DNA from: Eledone cirrhosa
Lineage: Eukaryota
Direction of reading: 5' to 3'
Assembly: GCA_964016885.1 (NCBI GenBank)
Contig: OZ024746.1
Span: 47,058,001 to 47,122,000, forward strand
Length of the DNA stretch: 64,000 nt
Part shown: positions 3,915 through 60,231 of the stretch, one piece after another
Layout: every line of letters begins with the position of its first letter
Position numbering within the stretch: the first letter of the stretch is position 1
Position numbers and translations under genes: made by a program
The notes under the pieces: model-generated
Database searches by the model: none
What the model was told of the DNA's origin: nothing
What the model saw: only the letters and a program-made list of their open reading frames with translations

Positions 3915-6205
3915 TAATTACGTAAAGATCTAGGAGAAATAAATAGGAATGAACTCAACAATGAAGGGGTTAAAGAAAGGCTAGAAAGAATGTATCGTTT
4001 TTAAAAACAAATGTCGAAGTTACACACAACGAAGTACAACAGAGCATGATTGTTGTAAATAGAAAAGATGAAAGATATCACAACAAATCAAAGCAATATG
4101 GAGAGAATCGACTATTTGAATCAAATAAAAAAAAAAAAGGTGTTTGATGAACTGGAGTAGCGAAAATGAGAAAATGTACCTAATGCAGAAGAGAGTAAGC
4201 TATTTTGGAATGAAATACGGCATCAGTCAGTAAGGCAGGATGAGAATGCAGGAAGGTTGGAAAATTGGAGGACGAATTGAATATAAAGATACAAAGAACT
4301 GTACAAATTGAATTGGGAAATGTGAAAAAGCAGATCACACGAGAATGCCTAGCTGGAAACGCCCAAGACCAGATCGTGTTAAAAATATACTGGATTAAGA
4401 ATTTGACATCAATACACAGTAAAAGAACAAATCAACTGGATGGATGACGCCATGAAAATTGATGGTGAAATGGATGGTAAATGGGAGATGGATTGGCAGT
4501 ATCGGTGGGGGGTCGGACGCCATGTTTTCCAGCATAGTTACGTCCCTTTACGATCTGAGTTCAAATCCCGCCGAGGTTGACTTTGCCTTTCATCCTTACG
4601 GGGTCGATAAAATAAAGTACCAGTAATGCACTGGGTAATTGCTGGCCTTGTGCCTAAAGTAGAAACAATTATTATGTGTGAAGGAAATAGTAAAGGGGAA
4701 TATGGTGTCCAATTTTAGACCGATCTCTTGTCTACCTCTGTTATGGAAAGTATTAACAGGTATATTAGCTGAAATATTTTACAGATATTTGGAAGAAGAA
4801 AACGTGTTGCCATGTGTGCAGAAAGGATGCAGAAAAAGAAGTAGAGGCACCAAGTGTCAATTACTGATTGACAAAATTATAGTGAAGCATTGTAAGAGGA
4901 GATTAACATCATTGGGAGTCACATGGATAGATTATCGGAAGGCGTATGATATGTTGCATTACAGTTAGATTGAAACATCAACGGAGATATGTAGAGTGGC
5001 AATAAATACGAGACAGTTCATTAAAGATAGTATGAGACAGTGGAATACTGGCAATGGAAAGCTAAGAAATAGAATAAAACATAAAGAGATGAAAGGTCGG
5101 GTAAACAAAGAGTATGTACAGCGATTGAGGACAATATTAAAATCAAAACTCAACGGAGGGAATATTTTCTCTGCTATCAACTCAGGGACAGTGTCTATCA
5201 CTAAGTATAGGACTGACATCATAGATTGAATGAAGGCAGAGTTGGAGGCTTGGGGTCGCAAAACGAGTACGCTCCTGACGGCGTATGGAGTACATCACCT
5301 GAAGGTGATGACTGATTATATATATGAAAAGAGCAATTAGAGGCCGAGGATAGGAGATTATGTTAGAAATAAAATGAAAGGGTTAGAGCAATATTTAGGT
5401 GTGCCCAGAGAGGAGTTACTAAGGGCAGTGAATGGAGCAGATTTTGTTGGCAAAAGTACAGAAGAGATACAGATTGAACATAAAACTGCATATGAGGGCA
5501 AAGCACTACACAGATAGTTCAGAAAAGCAACAGATAAATTGAGAGGAATAAAATCATGGAATTGGCTAAAGAAGGGGTATTTGAAAAAGGAAAAAGAGAA
5601 CACAATAATTGAAGCTCAGAATCAGGCAATTATTTGCAAGAATAAAATCAGAATAGCATTATTTTGAGAAGATGTATCACCTATGTGTCGATTGTGTGGC
5701 GGTGCAGTTGAAATAGTGGGACACATTGTCTCAGAGTATCCGAAATTTGTTCAAAATGAATATAAGGTGTGACGTGATAATGTGGCCAACGTAATCCCCT
5801 GAAAACTATGAGAAGTGGGGACTTGACAAGGCAGACAAATGGTACATGCACCAACTGGATAAAGTATTGGAATCGGAAGACAGTAAGAATTTATAAGATT
5901 GACCGACACAAACCGATAAACGGCTAAATCATTAGACCAGACATCACTGTAATCGGAAAAGACAGCAGAACGTGTCAGTTGATAGATCCAGCTTATCCAT
6001 TTGATGCTCGCAAGGCACCCTAAAGTATGAAATTTCAAGAATGTGGAGGATGAAAAAGGTGTAAATGATACCAGCAGTCGTTGGCGCCTTTAGACCATCA
6101 CAAAAAATTTTAATGAATTGATAAAAAATTTAATGTTGAATCATCTTACAGTAGAAATGTTACACAAACCTTGTTTACTTGGAACGGCTAGGATAATAAC
6201 TAAAC
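3915..6205 (+). mobile_element. Degenerate R4/Dong-like RLE non-LTR retrotransposon with internal RT deletion
   Basis: RT N-terminal motifs NFRPISCLPLLWKVLTGI, QKGCRKRSRGTKCQLLID and WIDYRKAYD; thumb region LKSKLNGGNIFSAIN; PMCRLCG knuckle; RPDITVI...ID RLE motif; C-terminal CLLGTARII. Central RT motifs are missing near 5050; many stops. Confidence 0.85.
4488..4675 (+). mobile_element. tRNA-derived SINE inserted in the R4-like LINE
   Basis: Near full-length copy interrupting the WMVNG...LCVK coding segment. Confidence 0.9.
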
Positions 6206-6389: not shown

Positions 6390-6612
6390 AATAATGGTTT
6401 CTTATATAGGCACAAGGCCAGTAATTTGAGGGGAAGGGAAAGTCGATTAAATCGACCCCAGTGCGTGACTGGTACTTTATTTTATCGACCCCATAAGGAT
6501 GAAAGGCAAAGTTAACCTCGGGGGGATTTGAACTCAGATCATAAAGAGCCGTAACTCTATGCTGCAAAGCATGGCGTCCGACCCTCTACCGATACTGCCA
6601 GTCCACCGCCCT
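6390..6612 (-). mobile_element. tRNA-derived SINE, long variant, with 18-bp TSD
   Basis: Carries the extra GGGGTCGATTTAATCGACTTTCCCTTCCCC segment; TSD TCAATAGAC(G/T)TTAATAAT at 6378-6395 and 6614-6631. Confidence 0.9.
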
Positions 6613-6789
6613 CTCAATAGACTTTAATAATAAAATATATAAAATATTAAAGGAATTTAAGCAGATAAAGCAAGCTCTCTAGGATTTAATCCATTAATGC
6701 AAATTGAGAGTCCATCTACATAAAAGATACGATTTGATTATAAAAGTAAAATCTTCAAAGAAAATCAATAAGTGTACATATATGACCAC

Positions 6790-6983
6790 GCGGTGAATTG
6801 GCAGTATCGGTAGAGGGTTGGAAGCCATGCTTTCTAGCATAGTTACGTCCCTTTACAGTCTGAGTTCAAATCCCGCCGAGGTTAACTTTGCCTTTCATCC
6901 TTACGGGGTCGAAAAAATAAAGTACCAGTAATGTACTGGGTAATTGCTGGCCTTGTGCCTAAAGTAGAAACAATTATTATTAT
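6790..6983 (+). mobile_element. tRNA-derived SINE
   Basis: Full-length family match with A box TGGCAGTATCGG, B box and (ATT)n tail. Confidence 0.9.
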
Positions 6984-8731: not shown

Positions 8732-8880
8732 AAATAACTGTTTCTTACTTTTGGCACAAGGCCATCAATTACCCAGTACATTACTGGTACTTTATTTTAT
8801 CGACCCCGTAAGAATGAAAGGCAAAGTTAACCTCGGCGGAATTTGAACTCAGATCCTAAAGGGACGTAACTCTATGCTTC
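8732..8880 (-). mobile_element. 5'-truncated tRNA-derived SINE
   Basis: Tail, core and B-box present; A-box absent. Confidence 0.85.
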
Positions 8881-9373
8881 AAAAACGATGAATTAAATAC
8901 GAAGTCACACTGACATTAATGGAAATTAGAAAGTAGATAAATTAGGGAAACGGGAGAAATCTGTTATTGAACAACACAAGTAAACTAAGATATTGTTAGC
9001 AATGCACACGTCTTATTACTCTAAACTATCACGTATGGGTCATATGTTATCAAGTATATATTCTTGTAAAAGCTATTTAGAATTGTTATGGCATTATATA
9101 TTTTATTGTAAATGTCATCCAACTGAGTAGATAAAATATTAATGTTTTCAAACGATTAACATCATAATTCATTTTCGTGCATTTAATTATTAATTAGATC
9201 TCTCAATTCATAGAAGTAACCAACAACTTAAGAGGCAAATACATTTAAAAGTTTTTGGGGGTCTTTATTTTTTTGTTTTTGACGGAGGAGCGGTTATTCT
9301 ATTAATTTTTACTTGTAGGAGATTGTACAACTAACTTTTAGTCAGTCATAGATTTCTTATTTCATAGGGACGC

Positions 9374-10799: not shown

Positions 10800-10987
10800 A
10801 TAATTGTTTCTACTTTTTGGCACAAGGCCAGCAATTATCCAGTGTATTACTGGTACTTTATTTTATCGACCCCGTAAGGATGAAAGGCAAAGTCAACCTC
10901 GGCGGGATTTGAACTCAGATCGTAAAGGGACGTAACTATGCTGGAAAGCATGGTTTCTGACCCTCTACCGATACTGCCAATCCACCG
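10800..10987 (-). mobile_element. tRNA-derived SINE with 18-bp TSD
   Basis: Family match; ACTGAAATATTAGATAAT at 10787-10804 and 10996-11013. Confidence 0.9.
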
Positions 10988-15353: not shown

Positions 15354-15396
<43 letters not shown>

Positions 15397-15464
15397 CTAT
15401 ACACACACACGGGTGTGTATGATTGAGTATAGAAGATTATATTAATAAAAGGAATTCCAACTTT
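15280..15464. repeat. Inverted repeat (~56-bp arms) around a (TA)n tract, just 3' of PLE-A
   Basis: AAAGTTGGAATTCCTTTTATTAATATAATCTTCTATAC...CACCCGT and its reverse complement at 15409-15464. Confidence 0.85.
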
Positions 15465-15652
15465 GTCTGATTTACTCGTTTTATTTATAATCCTTTAAAA
15501 TTATAATGATATTATAATGAAATAGTAAGGTAGAATATTAAATGTTAAATGTTAATTGAACATCAACATCAACATCACTGTGTTGTTGGTGTTGTTGTTA
15601 GTCGACATGGTCGTAGGCGTAGTCATAGTAGAAGTAATACCCCTAAGCATTA

Positions 15653-18600
15653 TTATTGTTCGTTTAGCTTGGGTTGGAATTTATCAATAAAATTCCTTTC
15701 TTTAATTTTTCTCTTGATTTCACTTGGGCTGTGTAGTTTGTAGAATGGAAATATTATAAATATTTTCTGACCACATGTTGCTAGATGATTACTCAGGAGT
15801 ATCTGACGGACATTTGGTTCTCTTATTTGCTGTCGGTGCACCCGTGCACGTTCCGATAGTGCATTTCCAGTTTGACCGACATATAGTTCTTCACAATTCG
15901 GGCATTTAATGCAGTAAATTAGATTCCTGCTTTTGCAGTTCGTATTTGTATTTCGGAATATTTTTCCAGTTTTTGTGTTCATATATTGACCAGTATGTAT
16001 GAACTGACATGTGCCACATCGACTATCATTACAGTTAGATACAGTGAATGATTGGTCTTTGTTAAGATCAAACTTTGCCTTTGTTAGTAATTGCTTCAAA
16101 TTTTTCGGCTGTCTTTTACTAAGAATCAAAGCTCGGTCTGTGATTAAACCTTTTAATTCATTACTTTGAGTAATGATCGGTAGGTTTGCTTTTGCAGTGT
16201 TGAAGATATTCTGGTGACATGAGTTGTGTGTCATTATGAATGGTATGACCAGTTCTTGGTTTCTTCTTCCTTAGGTTATCCTAAGTTGTTGTATAGGTAT
16301 TTTTATAGCCCGCTGTATGCCATTTTCTATAAGTAGAGATGATTATTTTTGTTTGAGCAAAAATTCTCTCAGTTCTGTTAGGCGTTTGTTCCTGGTATTC
16401 GTATCTTCTACAATGGTACAAATTCTTCTGGCTAGGCAGTATGGGATGTTGCTTTTCAGATATTGATGAGTGTCTGTGTGTTTATAGTATATATCCATGG
16501 TAATGGTGGTGTCGTTTTTGATTACCATTATATCTAGGAATGGTAATTTGGTACTACTCATCTCTTTTGTAAATTGGAGAGATGGATGTGGGTTATTCAG
16601 GAGGATATTGAACTCATCCAGAGTATCTAGAGATTCTGTCCAGATGATGAAACAGTCGTCAAGTTATCTCTTCCAAGACTTTTCAATGTACTTTCTAAAT
16701 TCAGTGCTATATTTTTCCTCTATTTCTTGTAGAGTTGTTGATCTAAGTATCCCATTACAGAGTTCGCGCAAACGGGAGCAAACTTCGTTTCCAACGCTGT
16801 GTCTCTAATTTGGATGTAATTTTTTCCATTGAAGAAGAATGTGTTGTTTTCCAGAATAAGTCTGACTGCGTCTAATATAAATGGCACTGTGAATCTGGTG
16901 GCAATCACTTCTCTATGTTTTTCCACCCAGTATTTAACCGCCTTTATTCCTAAATCATGTGTAATGTTGGTGTAAAGGCTTACCACATCAAAACTAAGTA
17001 GAAGAGAATTCGTTTCCGTGGTTTTGGGAAGATGGGACAGGAAGTCGATATCATCCCGGATGAAACTGGGTATGTGAATACATAGTGGTTTCAAAATAAT
17101 GTCAACAAATTCCTTAGACGGTGGGTAGGGCATGTTGGACCAGCTATAATAGGTCTAAGTTTTAAGTCTTTTGGGTGTAGTAATTTAATGTACTCACTTT
17201 TTTGTTCTTTTACTGCCAGTTAGATTTCTTTTGACGTAAGGCATAAAAGTTGCTGGGTTTTGGCTCAAAATTGGTGATGTAGTCTCTTTCATTAAGTGAG
17301 TTGTGGTATTTTGAAGCCAGGTTGTTGATCTTCTTCATGATGTTGCGGTCTATAATTGACGGTATTTCATGGTAGAATGTTGTGTCTTTCAGTTGTTCCT
17401 CAACCAAACCTTTGTAGTAGTCAACATCCATTATAACAATTGCACCCCTTTATCTGCTTGTTTAATTATTATTATTTCATCATTTTGTACGTTTAAGTGC
17501 AGACATTTCCGATTTGTTAATGTTTGGCCTAACATTAGTATTACGTCTAAGAGGAAATTTAGACAGGATATCAATGTATTGGTCGAGATAGATATTTCTT
17601 CCTTTTGGCGGAGTGAAATTTGATTTATTCTTTACTAGTGATTCATCACTCTCATTACTTTTATCAGCGAATAATTCTACAAGTCGTAATTTACGACAGA
17701 ATTCCTGGGTACCCTCCTTTAGTTCTTGGTGCTTGACTGTTGGAGTCGGTGTGCATTTCAGTCCTTTTGACAGAATTTGCATTTCATCATTGTCAAGATC
17801 TCTTTTGGATAAATTAATTATTTTAGGATCTACGTGTTATTATTTTGGGTATGTTTCCTCCTAGACTTTTTCTTTTTCCGGTTTTTTGTTGTCCTGACGT
17901 TAAAAAGTGGATTTTTCTCTGTTCAGGATTTATATTCCTGTTGGTCTTTGCTTGATGAACTTTTGGTCGTGATATTATACTTAGTTTCGTTATGTTTTTG
18001 TCCTATTTTTGGTATTATGTATATTATTTTTCCATTTCTTGTTAGCATTATTTTTAACAATCTGGGAAAATGACCTAGGTTTGCTTTCAGGTTTAGATCG
18101 TTTTTTTGCCCCGTTCCTTGTGGGTAGTGTCTGTTGACATCTTGAGAATGATCTCCTGTTTTTTTCTTCTTCTCATGGTCTGGCCAAAGGAATATCCATC
18201 GTGTTTGTGCTTTTTGTTCATGTTGTGTGCGTTAGGGTGTTTTTGTAGAAAAAGCGAAGAGTTTTTACCGTAGTTCTTCTTTGATTCAAGGTAAGGTGAG
18301 TGTTTGTGTTGCCGTGTGTTCTGGCGTATTGTTGGCGAGATTGTCCACTTTTAATGCTTTTTCTCAGAGTTCCAGAGTCTTTACCGAGAAATAATTGTTT
18401 CTGCTGCCATAACTTTCTTGATTTGCTTTCTTCTTTTGAGATATCACTGATCCATAGTTCTCGTAGTTTTTCAGCTATATTACCAGTCGTTAGCTTTGAA
18501 ATTTCGACTTTAATTTGGTCATCGATAGCCTCGTATTTGGCTTTGTAGCGGGATTGTTTACATTGAGTAATGGAGATGTCGGTCCTGAATTTTGTCAATG

Positions 18601-18790
18601 TAAATTCCCATCGGAATTTTGTTTCTTCTTCTGGCTCTCCTGCAATTTTTTTAATTAGGTATTTACGAGGGAGTATGGCTGCCGTTAGAGAAAGCCATTT
18701 CGAATGTGTTTTGATATATTTCGACATAAAATGGATCAAGTTAAAAAAGCCGTTGGCTTTAAGTCCGGGGTCATAATAACAGAGAAGCTA
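15653..18790 (-). mobile_element. Penelope-like retroelement A (frameshifted; RT + Cys linker + GIY-YIG)
   Basis: LSKGLKCTPTP, LLLSFDVVSLYTNI, WKR*LDDCFIIW (catalytic Y codon mutated to TAA), LPFLDIMV, CNDSRCGTC linker and NLIYCIKCPNCEELYVGQT GIY-YIG, collinear over several broken ORFs. Confidence 0.92.
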
Positions 18791-18853
18791 GGTAAATTTG
18801 TGTCTATATATGTGTATGTGTGTGTATATATACATGTATATATATGTATATAT

Positions 18854-20763: not shown

Positions 20764-20852
<89 letters not shown>

Positions 20853-20902
20853 AGTATGTATGTATCCGTACATACATATATGTATACAGACGTACAGTAG
20901 CA

Positions 20903-20964
<62 letters not shown>

Positions 20965-21121
20965 TGCATACAGGTACACATACATATATGTACGCATCAG
21001 TTTAGCGGACGCTTATTATAGCGCCCGCTTTGTTCGTTTGTAAACAAACTGAACAGCCTGAATTTATGCCGCACGGTGTTAAGGCAACCACGTCACGTTT
21101 TTGTTCAACACTGACACAGGA

Positions 21122-21164
21122 ACGATGTACTAGTTTCAAGCTTGTTAGCTATCATCAGCACCGT
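21122..21164 (-). ncRNA. Minimal type I hammerhead ribozyme (copy 1)
   Basis: ACGGUG CUGAUGA U AGCU AACA AGCU U GAAA CUAG UA CAUCGU: 6-bp stem I, intact core, 4-bp stem II, palindromic ACUAGU stem III, GUA cleavage triplet. Confidence 0.82.
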
Positions 21165-21400
21165 ATACCCATCTGCCAGATAGTTGAACGTTCGAAAGTA
21201 TATACTTTCCTTATGAAAATTAACGGCTGAGCAGCCTAATTTGCATATCGAGTGAGTTAAATCGGTCAGGCGCACCGAAAACGATGAGTTGTAATAAAAT
21301 GAAAACGAAATTTCATTTCTCACTCTTAGTACGGCACTTACTTAAATGTAAGTATGTATGTATACGTACATACATATATGTATACAGACGTACAGTAGCA

Positions 21401-21440
<40 letters not shown>

Positions 21441-21593
21441 TACAGGTACACATACATATATGTACGCATCAGTTTAGCGGACGCTTATTATAGCGCCGGC
21501 TTTGTTCGTTTGTAAACAAACTGAACAGCCTGAATTTATGCCGCACGGTGTTAAGGCAACCACGTCACCTTTTTGTTCAACACTGACACAGGA

Positions 21594-21636
21594 ACGATGT
21601 ACTAGTTTCAAGCTAGTTAGCTATCATCAGCACCGT
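21594..21636 (-). ncRNA. Minimal type I hammerhead ribozyme (copy 2)
   Basis: Same fold; one substitution in loop II (AACU). Confidence 0.82.
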
Positions 21637-22063
21637 ATAACCATCTGCCAGATAGTTGAACGTTCGAAAGTATATACTTTCCTTATGAAAATTAACGGCT
21701 GAGCAGCCTAATTTGCATACAAAGCGGGCGCTATAATAAGCGCTATAATAAGCGCCCGCTAAACTGATGCGTACATATATGTATGTGTACCTGTATGCAT
21801 ATATGTATATATATATATATATATGCATGCTACTGTACGTCTGTATACATATATGTATGTACGTATACATACATACTTACATATAAGTAAGTGCCGTACT
21901 AAGAGTGAGAAATGAAATTTCGTTTTCATTGTATTACAACTCATCGTTTTCGGTGCGCCTGACCGATTTAACTCACTCGATATGCAAATTAGGCTGCTCA
22001 GCCGTTAATTTTCATAAGGAAAGTATATACTTTCGAACGTTCAACTATCTGGCAGATGGGTAT

Positions 22064-22106
22064 ATGGTGCTGATGATAGCTAACAAGCTTGAAACTAGTA
22101 CATCGT
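22064..22106 (+). ncRNA. Minimal type I hammerhead ribozyme (copy 3)
   Basis: ATGGTG CTGATGA TAGCTAACAAGCTT GAAA CTAG TA CATCGT; the C>T change in stem I keeps a G-U pair. Confidence 0.82.
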
Positions 22107-22263
22107 TCCTGTGTCAGTGTTGAACAAAAACGTGACGTGGTTGCCTTAACACCGTGCGGCATAAATTCAGACTGTTCAGTTTGTTTACAAACGAACAAAG
22201 TGGGCGCTATAATAAGCGTCCGCTAAACTGATGCGTACATATATGTATGTGTACCTGTATGCA

Positions 22264-22294
<31 letters not shown>

Positions 22295-22533
22295 GCATGC
22301 TACTGTACGTCTGTATACATATATGTATGTACGTATACATACATACTTACATTTAAGTAAGTGCCGTACTAAGAGTGAGAAATGAAATTTCGTTTTCATT
22401 TTATTACAACTCATCGTTTTCGGTACGCCTGACCGATTTAACTCACTCGATATGCAAATTAGGCTGCTCAGCCGTTAATTTTCATAAGGAAAGTATATAC
22501 TTTCGAACGTTCAACTATCTGGCAGATGGGTAT

Positions 22534-22576
22534 ACGGTGCTGATGATAGCTAACAAGCTTGAAACTAGTACATGGT
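22534..22576 (+). ncRNA. Minimal type I hammerhead ribozyme (copy 4)
   Basis: Core intact; one mismatch in the stem I 3' arm (CATGGT). Confidence 0.75.
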
Positions 22577-22733
22577 TCCTGTGTCAGTGTTGAACAAAAA
22601 GGTGACGTGGTTGCCTTAACACCGTGCGGCATAAATTCAGGCTGTTCAGTTTGTTTACAAACGAACAAAGCGGGCGCTATAATAAGCGTCCGCTAAACTG
22701 ATGCGTACATATATGTATGTGTACCTGTATGCA

Positions 22734-22809
<76 letters not shown>

Positions 22810-22919
22810 TGCTACTGTACGTCTGTATACATATATGTATGTACGTATACATACATACTTACATTTAAGTAAGTGTCGTACTAAGAGTGAGAAATGAAAT
22901 TTCGTTTTCATTTTATTAC

Positions 22920-22998
<79 letters not shown>

Positions 22999-31877: not shown

Positions 31878-31925
31878 TATTCATTTACGATGATCGGCTG
31901 TAAAGTGCATATGCTGAAGGGTTCA

Positions 31926-32671
31926 TAGCATAGGTGAAAGGATAGACCAACACTGGGGGGAACTAAAATGACGAAAAAACGGGTCAGTACTATACGAACA
32001 TGCTAGACAACAACATGACGGTAACATAGACAACATAGAAATTAGAATAATATCTAAACATAGAAATGACCCAGCATATAGGCAAATCAGAGAGGCCAGT
32101 GAAATAGAAATTAGAAGACCAAAGCTAAACAGAAAGAATGAATGGAATAACAACAACACCCAAACAAACAACACTGACCTAAGAGAAGTATAAATAAGTA
32201 AATAAAATAAGATAAATAAATAAATAAATACATACACAAGCACAATAACAACAAGCACATAAACACACACTAGTCACCCATCACACAGCAAACATAACAC
32301 TATACACACGCGCAAACGCATGCGCAAACAAGACAAAATAAAATAAACAAACAAGCTAATAAATAAATAAATATATAGACAGACTGAATAAAAATGGCGT
32401 AGACATACAACACAACAGGAGGAAAATATAACACCACTGACGATGTTGCAGATGTGCAACGAAAGATTTATGATAAACTATATATATGTGTTTGTGTCTA
32501 TATTGTATCTGTATTATTTTTGACCGTCGGCCAGTCAATGGCAACATTGAGGACCGAGTAAGTTAGATTACCGATATAAAAGACAGCGAGAAGCGAAAAC
32601 CAACCAAACAGTGAGTGTGTTCTGTTATTAATTCTGGCAATATTACACAAATATGACCCTCCCCAAGTATA
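31926..32671 (+). mobile_element. Penelope-like element B, 3' fragment (GIY-YIG end + 3' pseudo-LTR)
   Basis: Near-identical reverse complement of 48215-48960. Confidence 0.9.
32433..32474 (+). ncRNA. PLE-associated minimal hammerhead motif
   Basis: ACCA CTGACGA T GTTGCA GATG TGCAAC GAAA GATT TA TGAT: core and 6-bp stem II intact; stems I and III weak. Confidence 0.6.
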
Positions 32672-32724
32672 AATATATATATATATATACATGGAACTCC
32701 TTTAACCATCTTTTGATCTTATAT

Positions 32725-38538: not shown

Positions 38539-39260
38539 ATAAATGGACTAAATGAAACGAAATTTCATTTCTCACTCTTAGTACGGCTGTTACTCTAATA
38601 CAAGTATGTATACATACATATATGTATACAGACGTACAGTAGTATGTATATATATATATACATACATGCACACATATATATATATGTACGTATGGATTTA
38701 CCGAGCATTATAATAAATGCTCGGTGAATCCATACGTACATATATATATATATATGTGCATGTATGTATATATATATACATACTACTGTACGTCTGTATA
38801 CATATATGTATGTATACATACTTGTATTTAAGTAACAGCCGTACTAAGAGTGAGAAATGAAATTTCGTTTCATTTAGTCCATTTATCGTTTTGGGTGCGC
38901 CCGGCCGATCAACTCACTCGATATGCAAATTAGGCTGCTCAGCCGTTAATATGCATAAGGAAAGTATATACTTTCAGACGTTCAATCATATGGCAGGAAG
39001 GTATACCGTGCTGGCGATAGCTAATAAGCTTGAAACTAATACATCGTTCCTTTGTCAGTGTTGAACAAAAGGGCAACGATGGTTGCTAAACACTGTACGG
39101 CTTAATTCGGGATGTTTGTTTACAAACAAACCGAGCATTATCATAAATGCTCGGTAAATCCATACGTACATAGATATATATATATGTGTGTGTATGTATG
39201 TATATATACACATACTACTGTACGTCTGTATACATATATGTATGTACGTATACATACTTA
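38539..39260. repeat. Diverged sister of the 470-bp hammerhead unit (partial tandem + inverted arm)
   Basis: Collinear with the 21-23 kb unit; palindrome 38539-38886; hammerhead relic ACCGTG CTGGCGA TAGCTAATAAGCTT GAAA CTAA TA CATCGT at 39005-39047. Confidence 0.85.
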
Positions 39261-39270
39261 TATATATATA

Positions 39271-39317
<47 letters not shown>

Positions 39318-45040: not shown

Positions 45041-45256
45041 TAATAATAATTCTTTCTACTTTAGGCACAAGGCCAGCAATTTTCGGGAAGCGAAAGTCGA
45101 TTAAATCGACCGCAATACGCTACTGGTACTTTATTTTATCGACCCTGTTACGATGAAAGGCAAAGCTAACCTCGGCAGGATTTGAACTCAGAACGCAAAG
45201 GGCCACAACTCTATGTCGCGAGGCAGGGTGTTCGACGTTCTACCGATACTGCCATA
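45041..45256 (-). mobile_element. tRNA-derived SINE, long variant
   Basis: Family match including the GTCGATTAAATCGAC hairpin. Confidence 0.85.
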
Positions 45257-45660: not shown

Positions 45661-45809
45661 AGCTGAGGATCCGCTAAGGTGAAACAATTGTTCTCGGTAT
45701 GGTGAACTAACTGTTGCGTTACCACTTCTTTCTACCTAACTCGTCCGATGGACTGAGTGCTCTACCACTATGGATATTACCTTCTAGTGTTCTACTTATA
45801 TAAATATAT

Positions 45810-48197: not shown

Positions 48198-48214
48198 GCA
48201 TACATATATATTGT

Positions 48215-49430
48215 TATACTTGGGGAGGGTCATATTTGTGTAATATTGCCAGAATTAATAACAGAACACAATCACTGTTTGGTTGGTTTGCGCTTCTCGC
48301 TGTCTTTTATATCGGTAATCTAACTTACTCGGTCCTCAATGTTGCCATTGACTGACCGACGGTCAAAAATAATACAGATACAATATAGACACAAACACAT
48401 ATATATAGTTTATCATAAATCTTTCGTTGCACATCTGCAACATCTTCAGTGGTGTTATATTTTCCTCTTGTTGTGTTGTATGTCTACGCCATTTTTATTC
48501 AGTCTGTCTATATATTTATTTATTTATTAGCTTGTTTGTTTATTTTATTTTGTCTTGTTTGCACATGCGTTTGCGCGTGTGTATAGTGTTATGTTTGCTG
48601 TGTGATGGGTGACTAGTGTGTGTTTATGTGCTTGTTGTTATTGTGCTTGTGTATGTATTTATTTATTTATTTATCTTATTTTATTTACTTATTTATACTT
48701 CTCTTAGGTCAGTGTTGTTTGTTTGGGTGTTGTTGTTATTCCATTCATTCTTTCTGTTTAGCTTTGGTCTTCTAATTTCTATTTCACTGGCCTCTCTGAT
48801 TTGCCTATCTGCTGGGTCATTTCTATGTTTAGATATTATTCTAATTTCTATGTTGTCTATGTTACCGTCATGTTGTTGTCTAGCATGTTCGTATAGTACT
48901 GATCCGTTTTTTCGTCCTTTTAGTTCCCCCCAGTGTTGGTCTATCCTTTCACCTATGCTACGAGCTGTCTCACCTATGTATGTTGTTGTCATGTTTCTGC
49001 AAGTACCCTCTGTACATCTTATGCTATAGACTACGTTTCTAGTTTTACGGTTTATCCGGGGGTTCACCTTACATATGATACATTTCCTATTGGTACAGTG
49101 GGTTTTCTTAAAAGGGTAGGTTTTGCTGATCAGGGATTTTATGGTGGTTCCTGGCTTTTCTACCACCTTTATTTTTAAGTGGGTCTTTCTCAGGGCCTTT
49201 CTACACTGGTTAGCTAATTTTCCTCCAGGGGTGGCGTCCACAAACATGACACTCTGGTATCTCTGTTTGTCGTACCATGAGGTGGCTTTCCCTATCTTAT
49301 GTCTAGCCCTATCTAAGCTATTCCATGATTTGCTCCTGTATAATGGGCAAATTCCTTTCATGTCCAGTTCTATGAGGGTCTTATACTTTTCCATGGCTCC
49401 TTCGTATATTCTGACTCTGTCGCAAAACAT
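48215..49430 (-). mobile_element. Penelope-like element B, 5'-truncated (linker + GIY-YIG ORF 48693-49430 + 3' pseudo-LTR)
   Basis: MFVDATPGGKLA...IKVVEKPG...CTNRKCIIC...NVVYSIRC...YIGETARSIGERIDQH...RQIREASEI...PKLNRKNEW. Confidence 0.9.
48412..48453 (-). ncRNA. PLE-associated minimal hammerhead motif
   Basis: ACCA CUGAAGA U GUUGCA GAUG UGCAAC GAAA GAUU UA UGAU; differs from the 32.4-kb copy only at the free N7 position. Confidence 0.6.
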
Positions 49431-52745: not shown

Positions 52746-54554
52746 TGGTGTACGTGTGCATTTATGTATGTAAGTGTGTATACGTGTTTGTGTATGTGTA
52801 ACCATAAACGCGTGATGATTATATGCCCTTCATTTGGGGCTCTTCTCTCTTACCCTGTTGATCTGTACTTTCCTTTTTGAGAAAACATTTTCCCGTTCAT
52901 TTTCATCAGCAGAGGTTGAACAAGTTTGTTCTCAGGTCTAATGAAACGTACGTACCTGGTATGGTGCCGTCGTAGTTACTGGTCTTATTAATTATATATA
53001 TATACAAATTCCCCCAAAATGTGATTTTTTGCTTAATTTTAATATATTTTAATACTTCTCTGAGTAGATAATTTATTATTATATCTTATCCTTACATTGG
53101 GATTTTACGTATTAGAAAAGCTAACTTTGTAGAGTTGTAAATTAATATTGACAGCTCCATCATTGCTGAGCTGATTTAGACGGTTTTGCCTGCTATTTCC
53201 AACGTCGTATTGTCTTAATACATTAAGTGGAAAATATTCATACAATAATTCGGCGTTGCAACACGTTGTTCTCCGTGCAGTCTACTAAAGGCATGGTATG
53301 TATGATATATATTCATCTTGTCACATAGGGTGAAATATATTCATATAATAATTCAGCTATTCAATACGTTGTTCGCCATGCGGTCTTGCAACGAGATGGT
53401 ATATATGATATATTTTCAACTTGTCCCCTTATTCTTATTAAGAATTCACTTCCTGGTGAAGGAACTGAAACTCTTCCAATATTGGTTATTCCAATGTCTT
53501 GGAATAGCAGATGTTGTATCTTAATATCCAGTCACCATGGTCGAGGTATTATATAAGATAAAACCGATTTGGCTTATATTCCCAACAAATAAGATTCTGG
53601 CTATAGATGTAAATGAAAAAACATCCAAAGGAAACTCAAGCCTTTTATTGTGCTCGTTATCCTCTCTATCTGTTCAAACATCAACAATCTCTCCTCTTCT
53701 GAACCATTTAGGTTCATAATCTTCGCTCAGTCCTCCCACCCAACACCCGGCTCACATTGTCTTTTGTCAGCCTACGAAACATGTTATTGAATCATTCTAC
53801 ACAGAGTCCCAATCGACTAGAATACACTACATTTCTTTTCTTATGCAGGCATTAGTATTGGATGCCTAAATTGAATATCAACGGAATTAACGTCATTAGT
53901 GTATGAGGTAGTATAAATTCATTGATACTGACACTCTTTCTCTGGCGATTTATTAAAAGAAGGTGAAAAATTGTTAGATCACAAAACTAAAGTGTTTGCT
54001 ATATTTAGTTATATTACTTTTCATTCGGAATTTTAATCCTGCCAACTTAGATTTTGTATTTCCTTCGTCTGTGTCGATAAAATAAGTTCCAGTCATGTAC
54101 AGCAGATTATTTGAATCGACATTCTCTGCGAGCAATTACGAACGTATGGCAATATGAGAAAACCTTTTATATACTTTTATACTATTAAACATTAACTTAG
54201 GTCCATAAATCTCTCTAAATATTACTAACGGAATCATGAATTCTGCGTCATCATTATTTCTTTCAGACTCTAAACACTATTCACAACAAACTAGTTTCCT
54301 GTTGTTAACGACTATAAACGATATATGGAAACGGCTAGTGTTACAATTAGAATGTGTTAATGTTTTGAGACATTGCTTTATAATTGCTTTAGATTCTCTT
54401 GTCAGTAGGAATTGATTAAAAATATTTTCCAGAACGTACAGACGATGAGGTTTCCTAAGATCTATCAGAGCTAGACATATATTAATTTGTAAATCGATTT
54501 CATGTATAAAAAGATACATACATACACACACGCACCTACGAACGCACGTACGAT

Positions 54555-54713
54555 TTGAGTTCAAATCCCGCTGAGGTTAGCTTTGCCTTTCATCCTTACG
54601 GGGTCGACAAAATAAAGTACCAGTCATGTACTGGTGTCGATTTAATTGATTTTCCCTTCTCCTAACTCCAAAATTGCTGGCCTTGTGTCTAAAATAGAAA
54701 TCATTATTATTAT

Positions 54714-58471: not shown

Positions 58472-58522
58472 GGCTTCTATAGGACTAGAACTGTTTCATT
58501 CGGCAGAAATCATCAGAAAGCC
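58472..58522 (-). ncRNA. Type I hammerhead (family 3)
   Basis: GGCUUU CUGAUGA U UUC UGCC GAA U GAAA CAG UUCUAGUC CUA UA GAAGCC; 6-bp stem I, intact core, one stem III mismatch (sister copies have CUG). Confidence 0.65.
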
Positions 58523-58542
58523 CTGACTCGACCCAGGATAAA

Positions 58543-60178
<1,636 letters not shown>

Positions 60179-60198
60179 ATATATATATATATATTTAT

Positions 60199-60231
<33 letters not shown>

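Follow-up and report, generated by a model that had tools for sequence, protein, structure and literature searches.

The question raised by a stretch of Eledone cirrhosa DNA (contig OZ024746.1 of assembly GCA_964016885.1, positions 47,058,001 to 47,122,000; this whole stretch of 64,000 nucleotides is referred to here as the window) is how a short non-coding repeat, each unit of which carries one hammerhead ribozyme motif, came to be inserted at window positions 20850–22922. Judged by its sequence-level features, the element is a new family of metazoan retrozyme of the type without long terminal repeats (non-LTR retrozyme), that is, a non-autonomous Penelope-like element, and its copying probably takes place in trans, with coordinated priming at the two ends of a DNA break. 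The explanation that best accounts for the whole, to which we assign a probability of about 0.65, is that of a non-LTR retrozyme written into (TA)n by a Penelope-like reverse transcriptase (RT)-endonuclease, likely from a circular RNA unit. Assignment to this class and mobilisation by Penelope-like elements, taken jointly, appear highly probable; that the template is an RNA circle is the less secure part, which we still consider probable.

The element is one head-to-head insertion, in which two arms point outwards from position ~21720, with 1.8 units to the left and 2.4 to the right, and each arm runs out into (TA)n. The left end corresponds to a site termed A and the right end to a site termed B. 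The unit is 470–472 nt long, low in GC (37%) and non-coding: the element is overlapped by no open reading frame (ORF) of at least 120 aa, and in the circularised unit ATG frames reach 46 aa (sense) and 69 aa (antisense) at most. An initial annotation, made from the letters alone, had placed the element at 20848–22923 without a credible ORF, and its boundaries proved correct to 1–2 nt, both flanks being (TA)n. Hammerhead cores start at 21158 (minus strand), 21630 (minus), 22070 (plus) and 22540 (plus). Their spacing, given in that annotation as 470–472 bp, is 472 in the minus arm and 470 in the plus arm, with the inversion separating 21630 from 22070. The units diverge from each other by 1–4 bases per 135–215 compared. 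The features are as follows:

20764..20849, no strand: left (TA)n target tract, read from the sequence
20850..21719, minus strand: arm of ~1.8 units; 3′ end at site A (unit position ~250), 5′ end at unit position 351
21122..21164, minus strand: predicted type I hammerhead, intact copy; predicted cut after 21128
21128..21599, minus strand: complete 472-nt cut-to-cut monomer (predicted RNA unit)
21594..21636, minus strand: predicted type I hammerhead, loop II variant; predicted cut after 21600
21720..21755, plus strand: head-to-head arm junction with a 12-bp re-copied stretch
21720..22922, plus strand: arm of ~2.4 units; 3′ end at site B (unit position ~310)
22064..22106, plus strand: predicted type I hammerhead with a U-G wobble in stem I; predicted cut after 22100
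22101..22570, plus strand: complete 470-nt cut-to-cut monomer (predicted RNA unit), with an internal (TA)n hairpin
22534..22576, plus strand: predicted type I hammerhead with one stem I mismatch; predicted cut after 22570
22452..22459, plus strand: ATGCAAAT octamer, a candidate promoter motif only; also at 21982 (plus), 21239 (minus) and 21711 (minus)
22863..22922, plus strand: 60-nt ‘tail’ between priming sites A and B, present only on the end of the plus arm
22923..22995, no strand: right (TA)n target tract
38539..39271, no strand: second two-armed insertion, of an older subfamily, ~84% identical and with a mutated hammerhead core; B end left, A end right

The last of these, a fifth copy, had been overlooked in the initial annotation.

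The evidence that carries the explanation lies in the insertion ends. In a first sample, 48 clusters were mapped from best hits and gave 69 arm rows, of which four were merged or dropped and one ran off its locus, leaving 64 with readable 3′ ends. Classified by eye and later updated, these ends were at site A in 31 arms, at site B in 28, in the internal TA tract in 3 and elsewhere in 2, and none was at the predicted cut. Site A, in what is predicted to be the loop of a small hairpin, and site B are located ~250 and ~310 nt past the predicted cut, respectively. Nearly all A and B ends adjoin (TA)n, the 5′ ends are scattered and the inner head-to-head junctions are variable. Among the 35 clusters with both strands, 25 were A+B (one A end being ~10 nt short) and none A+A or B+B, with 5 unresolved and 5 dropped as duplicates or older-subfamily neighbours. 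A second sample consisted of 38 regions taken in genome order, two already seen being skipped, from the list of matches to the exact 36-nt core motif (10,391 occurrences in the 3.0 Gb genome; none of the reversed control). It gave 19 A+B and again no A+A or B+B, together with 4 unresolved, 14 single-armed and 1 tail-to-tail. All resolved two-armed insertions of both samples (44/44) are hence A+B, which would occur with a chance of ~6e-14 if arms chose freely. A sister family gave 10 A+B insertions and none with like ends. Arms ending in the internal TA tract, where their partner was resolved, were partnered by an A end in five cases out of five; the tract may be a substitute for site B, or such ends may result from deletions between TA tracts.

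Such an anatomy has precedents. In AT-rich DNA, an anole Penelope protein was shown to cut both strands and to extend them; reverse transcription begins at two sites within the RNA, past the hammerhead cut, and the stretch separating them is the genomic tail (Frangieh et al., 2024, PMC11167929). Penelope-like elements are found as inverted 5′-truncated copies, often with a tail at one end (Craig et al., 2021, PMC8557442). The window family resembles the Neptune and Poseidon elements in its partial tandems, inverted 5′-truncated copy, microsatellite targeting, one-end tail and two internal start sites, and differs from them in the lack of an ORF and in a tail of 60 nt versus 30–40 (PMC8557442, PMC11167929). 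As the insertion anatomy is of the Penelope type and the element has no ORF, we infer that it is copied in trans by such an enzyme. Mobilisation by Penelope-like elements, merely suggested in the initial annotation, is thus strongly supported by the ends. The strict one-A-one-B count is not found for Penelope-like elements in the accessible text of PMC8557442 and PMC11167929. It would constrain Penelope integration, since the two sides of the break never share a start site (44/44), whereas no strand difference in start site was seen in vitro (PMC11167929).

The same genome hosts an autonomous Penelope-like family with open 775-aa frames, RT and GIY-YIG domains (RVT_1 just below the Pfam cut-off, GIY-YIG above it) and a hammerhead of its own. 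The CX4CxxC motif that precedes the endonuclease would place this family in the Neptune type. It ends in (TA)n at two sites ~55 nt apart and, among 20 regions, all 13 inverted insertions were A+B. Two of its insertions lie within the internal TA tract of retrozyme copies. Among possible partners, a Neptune-type element that targets (TA)n is the most likely. With the 470-nt RNA and the open 775-aa frame present in one genome, both the mobilisation and the pairing constraint become testable in a tube. Chimeras that could name the partner were also considered: two arms run directly into truncated Penelope ORFs, presumably of the Hydra type. As these junctions are 25–30 nt short of the expected A or B end, they are explained by later insertion into the terminal (TA)n with trimming, and the chimeras were discarded as evidence.

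As for the hammerheads, all four window copies retain the catalytic core, CTGATGA...GAAACTAGTA, and carry the features of type I (CUGANGA, GAAA, NUH, open stem I), so that they are predicted to be self-cutting type I hammerheads. The four intact cores announced in the initial annotation were therefore all recovered; the string that it quoted as near-identical holds for the core in each of them, its exact form occurring in the 21158 copy only. The remaining copies deviate by a C-G to U-G change in stem I (22070), a G-G mismatch in stem I (22540) and a change in loop II (21630). The cuts that had been predicted after 22100 and 22570 are correctly positioned, and those of the minus arm fall after 21600 and 21128. 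A structural hammerhead descriptor matched four times in the window and not once in 100 shuffles. The Rfam match is below threshold (HH9, 16.7 bits against a gathering cut-off of 52, E 0.17), and an Rfam scan of the window showed no hammerhead among the best 150 of 200 matches, most of which were to microsatellites. In the predicted fold of a 106-nt region around the intact copy (z −2.4), stem II is present and stem I has a long extension. Stem III is a 6-nt palindrome, and the double hammerhead is predicted at −20 kcal/mol versus twice −7, that is, 6 kcal/mol more stable than two single ones.

Comparison with related families indicates what has been conserved. Copies are dispersed and numerous, and occur alongside autonomous Penelope-like elements. 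Besides an older subfamily (82% identical), there is a sister family, whose unit is 470 nt exactly and 60% identical, as well as a fourth one of 466–468 nt, which surfaced through the degenerate core pattern used for the partner search and is 61% identical to the window family and 89% to the sister. In all three of these families the core is preserved and stem pairs are exchanged in a compensatory manner. Between the window family and its 60%-identical sister, 5 of the 11 stem I and II pairs have changed on both sides (3/6 in stem I, 2/5 in stem II) while the core is unchanged, a count based on four distinct rows and one sister lineage, hence one evolutionary contrast. Compensatory changes with the core retained argue for RNA-level selection. 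The predicted cut triplet is GUA in the window family, GUC in the sister and GUU in the fourth family, and the circular folds of the families share a common predicted topology. The ATGCAAAT octamer is retained in three of the four families. Most arms comprise only 1–2 units, the longest run being of 12 units cut-to-cut.

With respect to the template, a query lying wholly past the cut gave 30 matches, 29 of which extend upstream through it (some being segmental duplicates). The cDNAs thus cross the predicted cut, so that they would have been copied from a circle or from a multimer left uncut. A linear monomer released by cleavage does not usually serve as template, since inserted copies neither begin nor end at the cut; post-cut stretches without an upstream core numbered only 1/79, 0/35 and 0/41, counts in which overlaps may remain and for which many loci were found with core-spanning queries. 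The G133A subfamily allele is concordant across units in 31 of 31 multi-unit insertions (9.4 expected). Subfamily alleles agree between the units of an insertion, whichever arm these belong to, which is consistent with a single template or source locus. In the window insertion, a rare G-to-C at unit position 31 (window 21097 and 22131) is present in one unit of each arm and absent from the other two; conversion between arms or a mixed template may account for it. The circle is favoured because related retrozymes of coral, mussel and axolotl make circles (PMC7229834), because the hammerhead stems are maintained and because very young arrays of the fourth family consist of near-identical units. 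In these 467-nt arrays, with 17 units over two arms, unit length is array-specific on both arms. A very young array of this family (C1:56.387–56.396 Mb) has at least 19 hammerheads in two arms, and one of its sites alternates A,G,G with a three-unit period on one arm only, as a three-unit circle, local triplication or an assembly effect may produce.

The process would then run as follows. Array transcripts would cleave themselves into 470-nt units, predicted to occur best as dimeric hammerheads, and the units would be ligated into circles. A Penelope enzyme complex would cut both strands within (TA)n, one DNA end priming at site A and the other, in coordination, at site B. Each cDNA would run back through the unit for 0.2 to several rounds, and the two 5′-truncated cDNAs would be joined head to head, some long arrays being probably altered afterwards by local exchange. 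A more specific version can be put forward only tentatively, and we would rather bet against it than for it: one Penelope RT-endonuclease dimer would hold a single 470-nt ribozyme-made circle that shares no sequence with the enzyme's own RNA, prime both ends of the (TA)n break 60 nt apart and copy round both sides, with one-A-one-B being general for Penelope integration.

Several observations weigh against the circle-based explanation or parts of it. No sequence homology was found between the unit and any sampled autonomous element, the Neptune-type terminal repeat included. The older subfamily contains one B+B insertion (by eye) beside 10 A+B. In young copies, conservation of the core does not significantly exceed that of the remainder (4/602 vs 235/16,243, p 0.16). 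Read-through of the cut is just as compatible with an uncut multimer. That all units share a variant does not imply a circle as its origin, since a rare haplotype of the 12-unit array recurs in a separate insertion. Several arrays contain mosaic variants that suggest local exchange, and some insertions have arm-specific variants or two subfamilies joined, contrary to a strict single template. From the literature, unprocessed RNA was the main substrate of the anole enzyme and hammerhead mutants were still inserted (PMC11167929), and one of nine predicted dimers cleaved in vitro (10.64898/2026.07.22.740005). A private-variant test of the circle proved non-discriminating, as one haplotype was present in a second insertion and another in ~14 loci.

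The alternative that survives best, unlikely as we consider it on balance, is the following: the same Penelope-mobilised non-autonomous element would be copied from an uncut linear read-through transcript, with the hammerhead slow or idle and the arrays growing by local unequal exchange. The shortness of most arms is in keeping with this, as are the mosaic variants inside long arms and the haplotype found only in the 12-unit array and one small insertion, arrays being possible sources or siblings of such insertions. What tells against it is that the hammerhead stems are kept across families by compensatory changes, that 5′ truncation would shorten arrays in each round unless they were regenerated, and that in the very young 467-nt arrays units are near-identical and, on either arm, of a length particular to the array.

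Much less probably, the unit would serve as pseudo-LTR in an autonomous Penelope-like family outside our sample, the loci being its truncated inverted ends. Two arms and a tail are typical of truncated Penelope insertions (PMC8557442), and among frog retrozymes 24 of 57 families are homologous to known transposable elements, “21 of the 22” being Penelope-like (10.64898/2026.07.22.740005). The initial annotation had itself raised the case of a terminal repeat of an autonomous Penelope element. In 0 of 75 Penelope loci, which represent a few families, was the unit a terminal repeat, matches there being separate insertions. By tblastn, no RT/endonuclease frame was located directly upstream of the unit in 60 + 38 = 98 element loci, except in one duplicated pair, whose arm starts directly after a Penelope 3′ region, a point in favour of this reading; both sets are small relative to the thousands of loci. 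The units, moreover, repeat cut-to-cut, up to 12 times, and no ORF separates them. A satellite or foldback element that spread at the DNA level, through recombination in (TA)n tracts, and carries a vestigial hammerhead would suit the long inverted arms, the internal and flanking (TA)n and the signs of local exchange in long arrays, and is most improbable given the fixed asymmetric A/B ends and variable inner junctions, the same in kind as those of an autonomous RT element, and the RNA-structure covariation.

The preferred reading, a Penelope-mobilised non-LTR retrozyme, agrees with the initial annotation, which had proposed a young, dispersed, non-autonomous hammerhead retroelement of this kind. 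Its further remark that no described family was recognised here stands for the family and not for the class, which has been described (PMC7229834; 10.64898/2026.07.22.740005). No description of the family was found in the literature on cephalopod hammerheads and Penelope elements, retrozymes, internal initiation and twin priming, Repbase and Dfam lying outside this search. The main text of PMC13282606 does not contain the words ‘ribozyme’ or ‘retrozyme’, and no mollusc is named in the accessible text of 10.64898/2026.07.22.740005.

With metazoan non-LTR retrozymes, among them those of coral, mussel and axolotl and newt satellite 2 (Cervera and de la Peña, 2020, PMC7229834), the window family shares a non-coding, low-GC tandem unit, one type I hammerhead and thousands of dispersed copies. 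Short tandem units with one hammerhead each, at least two of them consecutive, are present as in that class. The weak palindromic stem III is like that of HHR_Amex1 and the U-U pair at the base of stem II like that of HHR_Amex2, both from axolotl (PMC7229834). The unit, of 470 nt versus the 150–450 bp quoted for metazoan retrozymes, is set apart by the internal (TA)n hairpin and by mostly short two-armed inverted insertions with fixed ends; the main text of PMC7229834 contains neither ‘inverted’ nor ‘target site’. Circles and cleavage have been demonstrated for those retrozymes and are predicted for the window family.

Retrozymes have been classed as non-autonomous Penelope sequences (Li, Clavereau and Pollet, 2026, 10.64898/2026.07.22.740005). 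Those of frogs likewise co-occur with autonomous Penelope-like elements, by which their mobilisation was proposed. The evidence there is co-occurrence and pseudo-LTR homology, with local amplification favoured for arrays; here it is the insertion ends, no homologous pseudo-LTR having been found. Mobilisation of animal retrozymes by Penelope elements through RNA circles had thus been proposed from co-occurrence and homology, and an insertion-end footprint is added here. Non-autonomous Chlamys elements such as MRC1 are also of Penelope type and form multicopy head-to-tail insertions (PMC8557442). They generally share 3′ sequence with an autonomous partner and most lack a hammerhead, whereas in the window family a hammerhead is present and no homology to a partner came to light.

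The self-transcribing newt satellite 2 has, we assume, an internal promoter of the small nuclear RNA type, which was not found in the literature search. In the unit, the octamer is the one candidate motif noted in this respect.

Possible scars of RNA editing were considered and discarded. In the first sample, A-to-G exceeded T-to-C changes by 18 to 2 in one hairpin strand, a region picked afterwards, and the excess was not replicated (1 vs 2 in the other strand, 19 vs 16 in the sister family, 14 vs 12 in the second sample). One insertion carries, in both arms, two A-to-G changes unique in the genome, an anecdote whose source may be absent from the assembly. At C4:337.457 Mb, one arm passes from the older subfamily to the young one with no spacer, possibly by a template switch between related RNAs. 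Related sequence also occurs under two other organism labels (B and C), in contigs of unrecorded kind that cover window 22445–22685 over 217–241 nt with 9–16 differences.

Elsewhere in the window, a decayed Neptune-type Penelope copy lies in (TA)n at 15395–18800 (minus strand); an internal deletion took out its hammerhead, and its young relatives, with open 775-aa frames, are abundant. At 58480–60230, an inverted pair of Penelope terminal-repeat fragments in (TA)n matches the 3′ region of another Neptune-type family, and a different hammerhead core stands beside it at 58516 (minus). Inverted copies of a Penelope-like 3′ end, 98% identical and 15.5 kb apart, occupy 31923–32686 and 48200–48963, each with a hammerhead-like core (32437, plus; 48449, minus). 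At 45663 (plus), immediately after an (AG)n tract, there is one more hammerhead-like core, its stem III being palindromic. Finally, a short repeat, which we take to be a tRNA-like short interspersed element (SINE), is present in many copies, at 2309–2680, 4489–4675, 6431–6980, 8746–8915, 10815–10987, 45085–45254 and 54549–54634.
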